From IMG/VR virus record IMGVR_UViG_3300044630_002233, positions 71,787 through 105,573 of that record: a stretch of DNA of 33,787 bases. One strand, 5' to 3'. Under the pieces are notes generated by a model. It had not been told where the DNA came from, did no database searches, and saw nothing but the letters and a program-made list of their open reading frames with translations. Made by a program: the position numbers and the translations under genes. The DNA is from a virus (lineage: Duplodnaviria > Heunggongvirae > Uroviricota > Caudoviricetes). Of this stretch, positions 29,273-33,787 are shown piece by piece; within the stretch, counting starts at the first letter, position 1; each line of letters opens with the position of its first letter.

Positions 29273-29872
29273 ATGGCCAAAAAAGAATCTTTTCAAGACC
29301 TGTTTGACCGATTTAGAGTAGATCCTGATATCTCTCGAAAATCTAAAACATGGTTCGAGCAACAAGCACTGCTTTTAAATAAACAGCAGAGATACCTCAC
29401 ACCAAATAAGGTGATGAATAACAACCCAGAAGTGTTAAAGGGTAGGATAATTCCTGGTAAACTCTACATGTTTTTTTACGATCCTAAAACAAAGGATACG
29501 TTACCATACTATGATATGTTCCCTATGGTTTTCCCGTACGCCAAAGTTCCAGGTGGTTTCATGGGATTAAATATGCACTACTTACCATATCAGTTGCGTA
29601 TTAGATTATTAGACAGACTTATGGTTTTCGCTTCAAACACAAAGATGGACGAAACAACAAAAATTAGATATTCTTGGGAGACAATTGCAGGTCTATCAAA
29701 ATTTAATTTGGCTAAACCGTGCATTAAGCACTATCTAGACAATCACGTAAGATCTCAATTCAAACTTGTCCCAGCTGGAGATTGGTCTACGGCAATGATG
29801 CTTCCTGTTGAAAGATTTGCAGGAGCAAATAAACAAGTTGTCTGGGCAGACTCAGTAAGGAAATCAAGATGA
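29273..29872 (+). CDS. gp2: DNA end protector protein gp2
   Basis: PGKLYMFFYDPKTKDTLPYYDMFP, GLNMHYLP, PCIKHYL..HV, W..AMMLP.ERF. Confidence 0.93.
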   Translation: MAKKESFQDLFDRFRVDPDISRKSKTWFEQQALLLNKQQRYLTPNKVMNNNPEVLKGRIIPGKLYMFFYDPKTKDTLPYYDMFPMVFPYAKVPGGFMGLNMHYLPYQLRIRLLDRLMVFASNTKMDETTKIRYSWETIAGLSKFNLAKPCIKHYLDNHVRSQFKLVPAGDWSTAMMLPVERFAGANKQVVWADSVRKSR

Positions 29873-30543
29873 GCACATTAAACGAGTTCATATCTCAAGT
29901 AAAAATGGGTGGTTTACAAAAACCGTCAAAGTATGAGGTTTACATTGGCAGACCAGCTGCTATCTCCAACGGAAAATATCAAAATAACAATGAGTGGAGA
30001 AAAATGTTGTTATTTTGCGAACAGGCAACTCTTCCTGGTATAACATATACTACAACTCAAGCAAGAACTTTTGGTGAGTTTAGAGAAATGCCGTATGAAA
30101 GAATTTTCGATCCACTACAACTAAGTTTCTATTGCGATAGTAAAATGTGGATCAAAGGATTCTTCGATGAATGGATGAATAACATTCAAGACGGAAAGAC
30201 ACGTGTTTTTAACTACTACAACAAATATACAACAGATATTCAAGTCGCTACACTTGACAATGCAGGTAACATTACATATGCAATAAATCTTTATGAGTGT
30301 TATCCGAAATCGATGTCAGCGATTCAGTTAGATTATGGTGCAAAAGATGTTATGAAACTTCAAGTAACAATGCAATATCGTTATTGGAAAAATATTGATT
30401 ACGCTAGATCTCCACAAGCGCAAGCAACGACGAAAATATCTAACCCACCCAGAGCAGCTCGTGTTGCTAATGTTATCGTTCCACAAGATAGACCAGTAAG
30501 AGCAATACCACCAGTTAACCTATCTGATTTTCCTGCTGCATAA
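29869..30543 (+). CDS. gp54: Tail-tube-family baseplate protein, tube initiator gp54
   Basis: GGLQKPSKYEV, CEQATLPG, REMPY, F..WMN.I, YECYPKSMSAIQLDY and VTMQYRYW fit the gp19/gp54 tube fold. The Pro-rich tail and position favour gp54. Confidence 0.8.
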   Translation: MSTLNEFISQVKMGGLQKPSKYEVYIGRPAAISNGKYQNNNEWRKMLLFCEQATLPGITYTTTQARTFGEFREMPYERIFDPLQLSFYCDSKMWIKGFFDEWMNNIQDGKTRVFNYYNKYTTDIQVATLDNAGNITYAINLYECYPKSMSAIQLDYGAKDVMKLQVTMQYRYWKNIDYARSPQAQATTKISNPPRAARVANVIVPQDRPVRAIPPVNLSDFPAA

Positions 30544-30554
30544 TGAGGATATAA

Positions 30555-30974
30555 ATGAAAAGTGATGAACAATTGAACAATGTTTTTGGAATTGATAATG
30601 TTATGACAAAAACAGAAATTATAACAAGAGATGGTGAAGTAATAAAACCAACAGACTCAAAAGTTGAAGACGATTATGAGTTGACGAGAGGTAATATACA
30701 AGCACTACTCAAACAAGGACACGAAGCATTAGCGAATGCCTTGGAGATAGCCAAACAATCTGAACACCCAAGAGCATTTGAAGTTGTTGGGAATTTAATG
30801 AAGCAACTGGTTGATGCCAACCAGCAACTGATGGATCTGCATAAGCAGAAACAAAAACTAGATGAACCTGCTCAAAGTGATAAGGCAAAACAGGTGACTA
30901 ACAACAACGCTATTTTTGTTGGAAGTACTAGTGAGTTGAATAAGTTAATCAAGAATATGACTAAAGGAGAGTAA
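30555..30974 (+). CDS. gp16: Terminase small subunit, gp16-like (139 aa)
   Basis: DDYELTRGNI, EHPRAFEVVGNLMK, NQQLMDLHK and VTNNNAIFVGSTSELNKLIK match the cyanophage-type small terminase pattern. GAGG SD upstream. Confidence 0.8.
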   Translation: MKSDEQLNNVFGIDNVMTKTEIITRDGEVIKPTDSKVEDDYELTRGNIQALLKQGHEALANALEIAKQSEHPRAFEVVGNLMKQLVDANQQLMDLHKQKQKLDEPAQSDKAKQVTNNNAIFVGSTSELNKLIKNMTKGE

Positions 30975-30978
30975 CACT

Positions 30979-31692
30979 ATGGCTTTACCAATTTTACAAA
31001 CACCAATCTACACGATTAAGATTCCATCAACGAATCGTGAAGTAAAGATTAGACCGTTTTTGGTCAGAGAAGAAAAGGCATTATTAATCGCACAACAAAG
31101 TGAGGATATAAATGTCATGGTCAATACACTGAAAGAAATTGTTTCTTCGTGTATTAAAGACAATGTTGATGTAGATAGTCTCTCAGTATTTGACTTAGAG
31201 TATGTCTTTACTCAATTACGTTCTCGTTCCGTTGGCGAATTTGTTGAACTACTATTTTTCTGTGATGAATGTGATGATGATAAAGCAAACACAAAACTGA
31301 CAATCGATATTTCTAAAGTTGGTGTTAAGGGTGTTGAAGATCATGTTAAAAAGATTGCTTTGTACGATGACGTTGGGATTATGATGAAGTATCCAAACAT
31401 AGAAACTCTGATTGCTTTGGAGAAAGTGAAAGAAGGAAATTTTGAAGCAATCTTTGATGTAGTCGCAGACTGTATTGATTATGTGTATACAAAGGACGAG
31501 ATCTTTCATGCGAAAGAACAAACCAAAGAAGAAATATCAGAGTTCTTGAATAGTTTAACGCAAGAACAATTTAAAAAGATTGAAAGATATTTTGAAACAA
31601 TGCCAAAACTTTCACATGATATTACATATGATTGCCCAGTTTGCAAAAAGCACCACGAAAAGGTGTTGGAGGGTGTTGAAAGTTTTTTTTAA
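30979..31692 (+). CDS. gp26: Baseplate hub assembly protein gp26 (short form)
   Basis: MALP...P.Y.IKIPST...KIRPFLVREEKALLIA, FDLEYVFTQLRSRSVGE, MKYP, MPKL.H, two CxxC pairs, C-terminal LEGVESFF. Confidence 0.92.
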   Translation: MALPILQTPIYTIKIPSTNREVKIRPFLVREEKALLIAQQSEDINVMVNTLKEIVSSCIKDNVDVDSLSVFDLEYVFTQLRSRSVGEFVELLFFCDECDDDKANTKLTIDISKVGVKGVEDHVKKIALYDDVGIMMKYPNIETLIALEKVKEGNFEAIFDVVADCIDYVYTKDEIFHAKEQTKEEISEFLNSLTQEQFKKIERYFETMPKLSHDITYDCPVCKKHHEKVLEGVESFF

Positions 31693-31717
31693 TTAATCTC
31701 AGCCATGAGAGTTTGGC
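31668..31717 (+). promoter_or_regulatory. Candidate -1 programmed ribosomal frameshift signal
   Basis: GGAGG at 31668-72; 10-nt spacer; T TTT TTT heptamer at 31683-89 in the gp26 frame, directly before the TAA; 7-nt spacer; stem TCTCA (31697-701)/TGAGA (31706-10) with loop GCCA complementary to TGGC (31714-17). Confidence 0.75.
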
Positions 31718-31868
31718 GAATTTTTACAAAATGAACTTTTCTCTAATGCAGTACCATAAGTATTCCTTGGCTGAGATTGAAAACATGATACCGTTTGAGA
31801 AAGAGATATATGTTGCGATGTTGATTCAATACTTAGAAGAAGAAAAACAAAGACTAGCGAGTAAATAA
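31689..31868 (+). CDS. gp51: gp51-like segment in the -1 frame of gp26 (59-aa extension; an internal ATG at 31731 would give only 45 aa)
   Basis: Read by hand: LINLSHESLANFYKMNFSLMQYHKYSLAEIENMIPFEKEIYVAMLIQYLEEEKQRLASK*. The QYHKYSL.EIENM.P.E..IY motif is that of the small 'gp51' ORFs of cyanophage-type T4-likes. No good SD precedes ATG 31731. Confidence 0.85.
   Translation, partial: LINLSHESLANFYKMNFSLMQYHKYSLAEIENMIPFEKEIYVAMLIQYLEEEKQRLASK
31861..31867 (+). promoter_or_regulatory. Putative late promoter box GTAAATA, 3 nt upstream of the tape-measure-like ATG
   Basis: GTAAATA-AAG-ATG, nearly identical to the gp25 leader TAAATAAAGAT. Confidence 0.4.
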
Positions 31869-31870
31869 AG

Positions 31871-33787
31871 ATGGCAAAATCTAATTTGGCTAAAATAATC
31901 CCATTAAGACCAGGAATGGATGGGTCAGCTGTATCCTCTGAAGAAGCAACAAAGAAGTATAAAGAAGTTGCGGAAAAGGCAGAGAAAAGTGATGACAAAA
32001 TTCTTAAGTCTAATGAAAGACTTTCTACTAATCTAGAAAAATTAGCCAAAGCAATTTCAGTTGGTACAATTAAACCAAACGAAGCGCCAAACTATAAAGA
32101 GGGTGGCACTTGGGATCAACGCACAGTAAAAGACCAAGGAAAAGATTATTTGATGGGTCGCAAAGGTGCTGATGGTAAACGTGATCCATTCGACAAAGAC
32201 TCATTAAAATATAAATTCGGTTCAATAAGAGGGTTGGCAAAGACAATGAATATTGTCGAAGACGACAGCTTTGTTGGCAACCTACTTGGTAGACGTGAAG
32301 ACAAATTAAAACGTGCCGATACTTTAATGAAGATGAATCCTCAAATGAAGAACTTAAAACAGTTCAAAGGGGATGATGAGAAAGTTAGACAGTATTACAT
32401 TAAACAACACGAAGAAGAGTTTGCTCCAGCTCAAGCCAAAGCGCAAGCAGAAAAATATAAGTTAGACTCGATGCTACAAAGTGGCATCAATCCAGATGAA
32501 TTGGCAAAGTCTGTTGGTGGTAAGAGACAAATAAAAGCAGTTGAGACTGCACAAGCCGACGAACTACTAAAAGATAAATTTAGAAAACAAGAAGTCAAGA
32601 GTACCCTTGATGGAATGGCTGCTTCTGTTCCAGGTTCAATGCCATCAAATGTTATACCATTCCCATCTCCATCATCAGGTGGTTCGGGTGGAGGTTTTGG
32701 TAGCGACAAAGAGTCTACTCTAGAAAATAATCGTTTAATGGCTCAACAGAATGAGATGTTGGGTGGTATGAGAGAAAATACTGCTGCCTTCCCGATATAT
32801 TTGGAAGAGTGGCGAGAAGAAACAAAAAGAAAGAAAGAAGCTGATGCTCAACTACTACAAGCTGTTCAAGAAGGTGGTACTGGTGGTGGAGGTGGTGGAC
32901 TTATGGACTTGGCTGGCGACATGCTCGGCAAAGGTAAGGGTAAGTTAGCTGGTGGATTGGCTAAAGCTGGCACTTTAGCAAAAGCTGCTGGTGGCGCACT
33001 CATGAGAAATGCTGGTCCATTGGCAGCTGGTGCTGCAGTGCTTAGTGGTGGTATTACTGCTTACCAAGGTTACAACGAAGCAAGCGATAAAGTAGCCAGA
33101 GGTGAAATAACAAAAGAAGAAGGTACAGTAGCAAAAGGTGGAGCCATCGGCGAAGGTGGTGGTCAAGCAGTTGGTGGCGCAGTAGGTGCGCTTAAAGGTG
33201 CTGCTGTTGGAGCAGCAGTTGGTTCCGTAGTTCCTGTTATTGGTACTGCTATCGGTGGTCTTGTTGGAGCAGCGATAGGTGGTATTGGTGGGTCATATCT
33301 TGGTGGTAAAGCAGGTAAGTTCCTTGGCGAAACTGGTGGTAAAATTAAGAACTGGTTCTCTAGTTCTAACCAAGATAAATCTGGTGCAGAAGCCAAAGTT
33401 CAATCTATGACTGCTACGCCACAAGCGCAGACAGAACCTAAAGTTACGCATGCAACAGCTGCAGGTAAGAAAATAGAAGAAGCGCAAGCAAGATTGGGAA
33501 GAAATGCTGACGGAAGTCAAGGAACTGCTGCTCAGCAACAAGGTGTAAGAGAATATGACAGAGTATATCAAGAAGCAAGATCTAATGGTAAATCTGTTAA
33601 GGAAGCGAGAGAATTAGCAGCGCAAGCCAGAAAGAAAGCTGAAACATCTGCAGCTGGTTCTGGTAACGCAGCTGGTACCCCACCTACAGCTGCAGCTGGC
33701 GCTTCAACTGGTAGTGGATCTGGTAAACCTCCAATTAGTAGCAGTAAAGAAACTAAAGGAATGAGAATTGCTGGTGAGCCATATATC
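31871..33787 (+). CDS. Partial ORF (>639 aa, runs off the window end): probable tape measure protein (gp29 analogue)
   Basis: Read by hand as stop-free from ATG 31871 to the window end. Helical, K/E/A-rich N-terminal half, Gly linkers and a long Gly-zipper hydrophobic tract (~33137-33330). Lies directly after gp26/gp51. Confidence 0.75.
   Translation, partial: MAKSNLAKIIPLRPGMDGSAVSSEEATKKYKEVAEKAEKSDDKILKSNERLSTNLEKLAKAISVGTIKPNEAPNYKEGGTWDQRTVKDQGKDYLMGRKGADGKRDPFDKDSLKYKFGSIRGLAKTMNIVEDDSFVGNLLGRREDKLKRADTLMKMNPQMKNLKQFKGDDEKVRQYYIKQHEEEFAPAQAKAQAEKYKLDSMLQSGINPDELAKSVGGKRQIKAVETAQADELLKDKFRKQEVKSTLDGMAASVPGSMPSNVIPFPSPSSGGSGGGFGSDKESTLENNRLMAQQNEMLGGMRENTAAFPIYLEEWREETKRKKEADAQLLQAVQEGGTGGGGGGLMDLAGDMLGKGKGKLAGGLAKAGTLAKAAGGALMRNAGPLAAGAAVLSGGITAYQGYNEASDKVARGEITKEEGTVAKGGAIGEGGGQAVGGAVGALKGAAVGAAVGSVVPVIGTAIGGLVGAAIGGIGGSYLGGKAGKFLGETGGKIKNWFSSSNQDKSGAEAKVQSMTATPQAQTEPKVTHATAAGKKIEEAQARLGRNADGSQGTAAQQQGVREYDRVYQEARSNGKSVKEARELAAQARKKAETSAAGSGNAAGTPPTAAAGASTGSGSGKPPISSSKETKGMRIAGEPYI

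Follow-up and report, generated by a model that had tools for sequence, protein, structure and literature searches.

A probable programmed -1 frameshift fusing gp26 to a gp51-like extension in T4-like phages

The tail assembly chaperones (TACs) gpG and gpGT of phage lambda are reportedly related by a -1 frameshift, which is said to be conserved in the chaperone genes of long-tailed phages. In the dnaX gene of E. coli and in insertion sequence (IS) elements of the IS911/IS3 type, the signal for such a shift comprises a heptamer of the form X_XXY_YYZ with a Shine-Dalgarno (SD)-like element ~10 nucleotides (nt) from it. In phage T4 the proteins gp26 and gp51 are listed as chaperones of baseplate hub assembly, and the particle does not contain gp51 (Leiman et al. 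2010, PMC3004832, Table 2). Here we describe the 3′ end of a gp26-like gene in a stretch of viral DNA of 33,787 nt, referred to below as the window, which forms the right end of the 105.6-kb IMG/VR record IMGVR_UViG_3300044630_002233 (~65% complete). Comparison of this sequence with its relatives indicates that a programmed -1 ribosomal frameshift very probably operates at the end of the gene, fusing gp26 to a gp51-like extension. The short and long forms would act as assembly chaperones for the hub of the baseplate and for the tape measure, without entering the virion.

The slippery site and its conservation

The gp26-like open reading frame (ORF) ends in GAA AGT TTT TTT TAA, and its run of eight T residues (T8) contains the heptamer T_TTT_TTT in the X_XXY_YYZ phase of the 0 frame, inside the overlap of the two frames (coordinates in Table 1). 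The shift could occur only between 31679 and 31689, because this region is bounded by a TGA in the -1 frame on one side (31676-78) and by the 0-frame TAA on the other. After the slip the -1 frame begins LINLSHESLANFYKMNF, and the long product would have 237 + 59 = 296 amino acids, with the residues ...VESFF-LINLSH... at the junction. The original prediction, made from the letters alone, had described this gp26 3′ end with its T8 run, heptamer and GGAGG 10 nt upstream, and all of these agree to the base; the 59 open codons of the -1 frame and the length of the long product were confirmed by translation. It had also stated that the first ATG of the extension, at 31731, lacks an SD sequence, and indeed nothing purine-rich of that kind lies within 20 nt of it. 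The TTG at 31713 is preceded by GAGAG at a distance of only 1 nt.

Sequences of the form TTTTTTY are rarer in the window than expected, with 15 found against 40 +/- 7.7 in shuffles, and no T8 run other than that at the gp26 site occurs there. A lone heptamer is not beyond chance, and the case rests on its conservation. We therefore turn to a comparison set of 91 related loci (4 GenBank phages and 87 IMG/VR contigs, with gp26 identity of 35-99%), which together with the window gives 92 junctions, 90 of them distinct. T_TTT_TTT or T_TTT_TTC is present in the same phase on a C-terminal Phe-Phe in 92/92 junctions. The 0-frame stop lies 0 or 1 codon past the heptamer in all but two of them, and the -1 extension is 58-69 codons long throughout.

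The choice of codons at the site is also constrained. The codon preceding Phe-Phe ends in T in 90/90 distinct junctions, and is AGT, TCT, AAT, GCT, GAT or GGT, which are six codons for five amino acids (Ser, Gly, Ala, Asn and Asp). The amino acid has thus changed repeatedly yet the T has been retained, which argues for selection on the nucleotide. TTT serves as the first Phe codon in 90/90, compared with a background of 74.5%. Naive probabilities, which are inflated by shared ancestry, are 1e-20 for the T-ending codon and 1e-11 for TTT as the first Phe codon. In T4 gp26 the Phe-Phe is encoded by the non-slippery TTC TTT, and in the T4 relative SonariX by TTC TTC, so the protein itself has no need of a U-run.

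The peptide of the -1 frame can be aligned without gaps from its first codon, and the frame is under purifying selection while having no conserved start of its own. The original prediction had proposed looking for a slippery heptamer in this phase in the gp26 3′ ends of T4-like phages, and for coding conservation in the -1 frame upstream of the ATG. Both were found at the junctions compared.

These data bear on the alternative that two separate proteins are made. In that case the 'gp51' peptide would arise by termination-reinitiation or from a weak internal start (TTG 31713 or ATG 31731 in the window, TAATG or TGATG in relatives), and the U-run would be kept merely for Phe-Phe. There is some evidence in its favor, in that many relatives have an ATG 1-6 codons past the slip site, with the first ATG at codon index 3 in 40/88, that the ATG overlaps the stop codon in ValKK3, RSP15 and D506, and that a stand-alone small gp51 is annotated in GenBank records. 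However, no start position is conserved, and in 35/88 distinct junctions the first 8 extension codons include neither ATG nor GTG nor TTG, which leaves those junctions without a start codon before the conserved part. In 18 junctions no ATG occurs ahead of the conserved NFxLMQ core, which contains the first one. In the window the ATG has no SD sequence, and starting at the TTG would drop 8 conserved residues. The invariance of the preceding T and of the TTT goes beyond what the amino acids need, given the non-slippery Phe-Phe of T4, and in T4 gp51 the domain in question functions when fused to a gp26-like body. We consider the production of two separate proteins very unlikely.

The two products and the T4 and lambda chaperones

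Residues 9-237 of the window gp26 correspond to positions 2-218 of the 219 in the T4_baseplate profile PF12322. The short product has a predicted TAC-like domain at its N terminus (approximately residues 1-90), and its C-terminal part carries CxxC...CxxC. The CxxC pair, which is Zn-ribbon-like, lies at residues 95-98 and 223-226 (31261-31272 and 31645-31656), and is common to the window's clade and T4 gp26. Most of these cysteines have been lost in cyanophage-type relatives.

A match of the extension to phrog_634 ('baseplate hub assembly catalyst') has a value of 4.5e-25. The final 40 positions of phrog_150, the gp26 family, are matched by the extension as well, and the T4-type gp51 of SonariX matches this family from end to end (6e-86). 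Both T4 proteins are full-length matches to PF12322, over residues 1-206 of gp26 (8.8e-64) and 1-201 of gp51 (3.9e-52), and the two match each other directly by BLASTP (2e-6). A profile of the extension aligns to residues 206-243 of T4 gp51 (hhalign, E 1.8e-4). When a profile was made from 81 conceptual frameshift products it aligned continuously through the junction to T4-type gp51, whereas its alignment to T4 gp26 stops at the junction. Only the frameshift product carries the gp51-specific C-terminal domain directly after the PF12322 body. The AlphaFold2 (AF2) model of the extension has three helices (pLDDT 80.9).

There is a single PF12322 gene in the complete genomes of S-SM2, S-PM2, Melnitz and ValKK3, against two in T4, and the window's own record has one copy each of the gp26 part and the extension. 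With one PF12322 gene in frameshift-type phages, the trans-frame product would therefore be the sole route to a gp51-type protein. These comparisons support a predicted 296-residue product that is collinear with T4 gp51, comprising a gp26-like body and a C-terminal helical domain, with the 237-residue product as the counterpart of T4 gp26. In the original prediction the small 'gp51' ORF was held to be the second part of a two-form chaperone and not a stand-alone gene, and the collinearity with T4 gp51, the single PF12322 gene and the conservation are all in accord with this.

T4 gp26 (208 amino acids) and gp51 (249 amino acids) resemble the short and long products in the window in having full-length PF12322 matches and the same domain order, although the bodies share only ~20% identity. 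The two proteins are encoded in T4 by adjacent, divergently transcribed genes, rather than by one gene with a predicted frameshift, and T4 gene 26 lacks the slippery site. The source, which the original prediction called a T4-like phage, is a lake-water relative of the Kyanoviridae-type T4-likes, and the arrangement does not extend to T4 itself. A tree of PF12322 bodies divides T4 gp51, T4 gp26 and all the frameshift-type genes three ways without resolving their order, the gp51 branch being very long, and so does not settle the direction of evolution. Gene 26′ of T4 (L104:2303-2590) is annotated as an internal in-frame product of gene 26, and thus T4 too makes more than one form from gene 26, by another route.

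The AF2 model of the window gp26 has a pTM of 0.80. In a comparison with 48,161 PDB representatives, each of the four top-ranking chains matched residues 1 to ~90, and the best fold matches of this predicted N-terminal domain are TACs (HK97, YqbN). A profile search of PDB sequences returned nothing relevant, and similarity to known TACs is lacking at the sequence level. Like lambda G the gene lies between the tube and tape measure genes, with a small terminase gene also between them in the window; in phiM19 and ValKK3 the tube gene is directly upstream of gp26 with no terminase gene between, and the order tube, gp26, extension, tape measure is direct. On comparative evidence, a conserved -1 shift would yield a short form and a C-terminally extended form, as in G/GT. 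The suggestion in the original prediction of a G/GT-like arrangement ahead of the tape measure is thus supported by gene order, by the conserved shift site and by the TAC-like predicted fold. There are also differences from lambda. The family in the window is PF12322, with ~237 amino acids and an additional Zn-ribbon-type C-terminal part, whereas G has ~100-140, and the heptamer is U_UUU_UUY in place of G_GGA_AAG. By analogy with G/GT, the domain of the short form would bind the tape measure and the extension would bind the tube protein, and both forms would be missing from the virion.

Stimulatory elements, mechanism and alternatives

A conserved Leu-Glu-Gly is encoded ~10 nt upstream of the heptamer. 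Among the 90 distinct relatives GAG encodes its Glu in 61/81, compared with 27% for the rest of the gene, and in most cases of GAA the next codon is GGG, so that an element GAGG or AGGG has been kept. An SD-like 4-mer lies inside 20 nt in 84/90.

What follows the heptamer differs between clades. In relatives whose heptamer and stop are separated by at least one codon (n = 67), the 45 nt that follow have a minimum free energy (MFE) of -9.9 kcal/mol, compared with -4.9 kcal/mol for windows from their own genes (p = 2e-11). These sister clades have two distinct hairpins in separate subclades, 5-10 nt past the heptamer, and both exhibit compensatory changes. The 5-bp stem has double changes in 4/5 pairs, with a score reached by 0/500 shuffles, and the 11-bp stem is 94.7% paired. 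The sister clades thus share with dnaX and the IS elements a 3′ hairpin at 5-10 nt, in addition to the SD-like element and heptamer that are common to them and the window. By contrast, no downstream structure was found in the stop-adjacent group that includes the window (n = 23, of which 19 are distinct over a 52-nt stretch; MFE -4.25 versus -5.09 for controls). Here the stop directly abuts the heptamer, in 19/19 distinct sequences, and this clade differs from the dnaX/IS type in having the adjacent stop instead of a conserved 3′ structure.

The 60 nt downstream of the heptamer in the window fold no better than shuffles (z = +0.21). A hairpin with a possible pseudoknot had been proposed in this region, and TCTCA-GCCA-TGAGA and TGGC are present as described. 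However, 67% of cells pair among the 19 clade members, a value equalled by 154/500 shuffles, and there is no covariation, so that the structure is not conserved and is no better than chance. A 4-nt loop that is fully paired without connecting loops would moreover be sterically implausible.

A stop codon beside a slip site is said to stimulate shifting, such sites being called 'shifty stops'. In the absence of a supported 3′ structure in the window's clade, we ascribe stimulation there to the SD-like element and the adjacent stop as the likely stimulators, with the part played by the stop being the one that we infer. The heptamer U_UU.U_UU.Y is among those that are efficient in E. coli, and U_UU.U_UU.C is employed by IS elements (PMC4066793).

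In the mechanism we propose, most ribosomes would terminate at the TAA (31690-92) and release the gp26-type protein of 237 amino acids. A fraction would slip back by one base on U_UUU_UUU (31683-89), aided by base pairing between 16S rRNA and the GGAGG 10 nt upstream, and by slow decoding of the stop codon that occupies the A site. The slipped ribosomes would then read 59 more codons in the -1 frame to give the 296-residue protein. Both forms would thereby be made from one gene in a fixed ratio, as are gpG and gpGT of lambda. In this scheme we infer the occurrence of slippage, its efficiency, the acting stimulators and the binding partners of both forms.

Several observations weigh against a programmed ribosomal frameshift. 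The sole RNA contig found, from a metatranscriptome, spans 31372-31604 and ends before the slip site, and so bears on neither ribosomal nor transcriptional slippage. An ATG occurs 1-6 codons into the extension in roughly half of the relatives, frequently in the form TAATG or TGATG, and in these phages coupled restart could also yield a free small protein. Transcriptional slippage might also take place to some extent on the T8 run, with the same protein as the outcome. The naive codon probabilities disregard shared ancestry. Lastly, the window's clade lacks a conserved 3′ RNA structure, and the efficiency may therefore be low. Coupled restart, transcriptional slippage and sequencing error are nonetheless unlikely even when taken jointly.

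For transcriptional slippage, the polymerase would add one U on the T8 run and the same ...SFF-LIN... protein would result. In its favor, the window's clade has eight consecutive T residues, TTTTTTY is under-represented in the window, and runs of U or A are known to cause such slippage, with UUUUUUU being avoided in genes (PMC4066793). However, 64/90 distinct relatives have only 6 T residues (NNT TTT TTC) and keep the strict codon phase. A run of 6 T is too short for efficient slippage by the polymerase. In addition, the phase, the SD-like element at ~10 nt and the hairpin at 5-10 nt matter to ribosomes and not to the polymerase. Transcriptional slippage is a very doubtful explanation.

A sequencing or assembly error in the homopolymer, or a recently broken fused gene, would fit the placing of 8 T residues exactly where the frame changes, but it is wholly improbable, since T8-TAA is identical in contigs of three independent lake-metagenome studies that span it with zero differences or indels and in the 98-99% identical relatives L005 and L006, the best 120 homologue clusters are all 236-239 amino acids long with no in-frame gp26-gp51 fusion among them (the T4-type gp51 genes were the only 'fused' forms found), and the same configuration occurs at 92/92 loci, including cultured-phage genomes. 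A homopolymer error had been named at the outset as something to exclude, and by these comparisons the T8 run is real.

Gene neighborhood, distribution and meaning

The source is an uncultured T4-like phage whose DNA is recurrent in lake-water metagenomes across many studies. Genes on the + strand run in the order gp4 (head closure), gp2, tube family, small terminase, gp26-like, the short -1 frame ORF and the tape-measure-like gene, and gp48, gp53, gp27-like, gp5, gp25, gp6, gp7 and gp8 are on the - strand. The tape-measure-like gene starts 2 nt past the stop of the extension. The stop of the extension falls within GTAAATAAAGATG, at 31862-31873, a sequence similar to the late-promoter box of T4.

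Table 1. Coordinates in the window of the frameshift junction and of the surrounding genes.
Feature	Position	Strand	Evidence
Tail-tube-family gene	29869..30543	+	Pfam Phage_TTP_2 and gp19, phrog_45
Small-terminase gene, between tube-family gene and gp26	30555-30974		phrog_445, 1e-38
gp26-like gene, 0 frame, 237 amino acids (short product)	30979..31692	+	PF12322 1.3e-60; phrog_150 2e-63; AF2 pLDDT 85.8
SD-like GGAGG, exactly 10 nt 5′ of heptamer, candidate upstream stimulator	31668..31672	+	sequence, relatives
TGA stop of the -1 frame, three codons before the 0-frame stop	31676..31678	+	-1 frame translation
Slippery heptamer T_TTT_TTT, X_XXY_YYZ phase, within T8 run 31683-31690	31683..31689	+	sequence; in-phase conservation
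-1 frame extension, 59 codons + TAA (31866-68)	31689..31868	+	ungapped conservation, phrog_634, T4 gp51 alignment
0-frame stop TAA adjoining heptamer ('shifty stop'), likely 3′ stimulator in the window's clade	31690..31692	+	
Hairpin TCTCA-GCCA-TGAGA (31697-31710) + TGGC (31714-17), function unsupported	31697..31717	+	fold, clade comparison
Tape-measure-like gene (gp29 position), runs off window	31871..33787	+	phrog_794 tail length tape measure 1.1e-7, related families

Relatives of gp26 were found by tblastn in 977 phage records, and the extension in at least 577. The heptamer and the -1 extension are both present in phiM19 (Emdodecavirus), RSP15, Aeromonas CC2 and ValKK3. In Ackermannviridae (20 loci) and Vibrio phage D506 the extension is in the -1 frame and unannotated, and there is only an in-phase U_UUC tetramer and no X_XXY_YYZ heptamer. 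The contexts of the tetramer in this set (L096, L097, L105-L124; L099) are GAR ATT TTC ATY TAA and CTT TTC AAG TAA; the -1 frame is closed by a stop 1-2 codons upstream, and TAATG occurs in some. U_UUC is the second most shift-prone tetramer in E. coli (PMC4066793). These loci may use tetramer-type slippage or coupled restart, and are less certain than those with the heptamer.

In the GenBank records inspected, the extension is either a separate small 'gp51' gene or unannotated. The stretch of ~180 nt from gp26 to the next gene is unannotated yet encodes the extension in Aeromonas CC2 (L094:1905-2073) and in S-CAM4, S-CAM1, metaG-MbCM1 and S-H9-1 (L100-L103). We found no report of a gp26/gp51 frameshift in full-text searches of the literature and no 'join' annotation in GenBank. 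If the frameshift operates as proposed, the annotation of hundreds of genomes would need correcting. A large and deeply conserved family would be added to the known cases of recoding, and it would offer a natural contrast within one family between clades with a 3′ hairpin and clades with an adjacent stop.

On balance we favor the broader view that the gp26/gp26-51 pair is the G/GT tail assembly chaperone system of the whole T4-like superfamily. An ancestral single frameshift gene would have been duplicated and 'hard-wired' as gp26 and gp51 in Tevenvirinae such as T4. The ancestral state would survive in Kyanoviridae-type, Schizotequatrovirus, Emdodecavirus, Emmerichvirinae and RSP15-type phages, and perhaps, in the shape of the U_UUC tetramer, in Ackermannviridae. 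If this is true, gp51, long obscure and called 'catalytic', would be a protein of the GT type, and with gp26 and gp51 as hard-wired short and long forms T4 would therefore be no exception to the rule of a two-form tape-measure chaperone in long-tailed phages. Were the two forms of the G/GT type, the assembly of the T4-like hub and tape measure would become directly testable by analogy with lambda.
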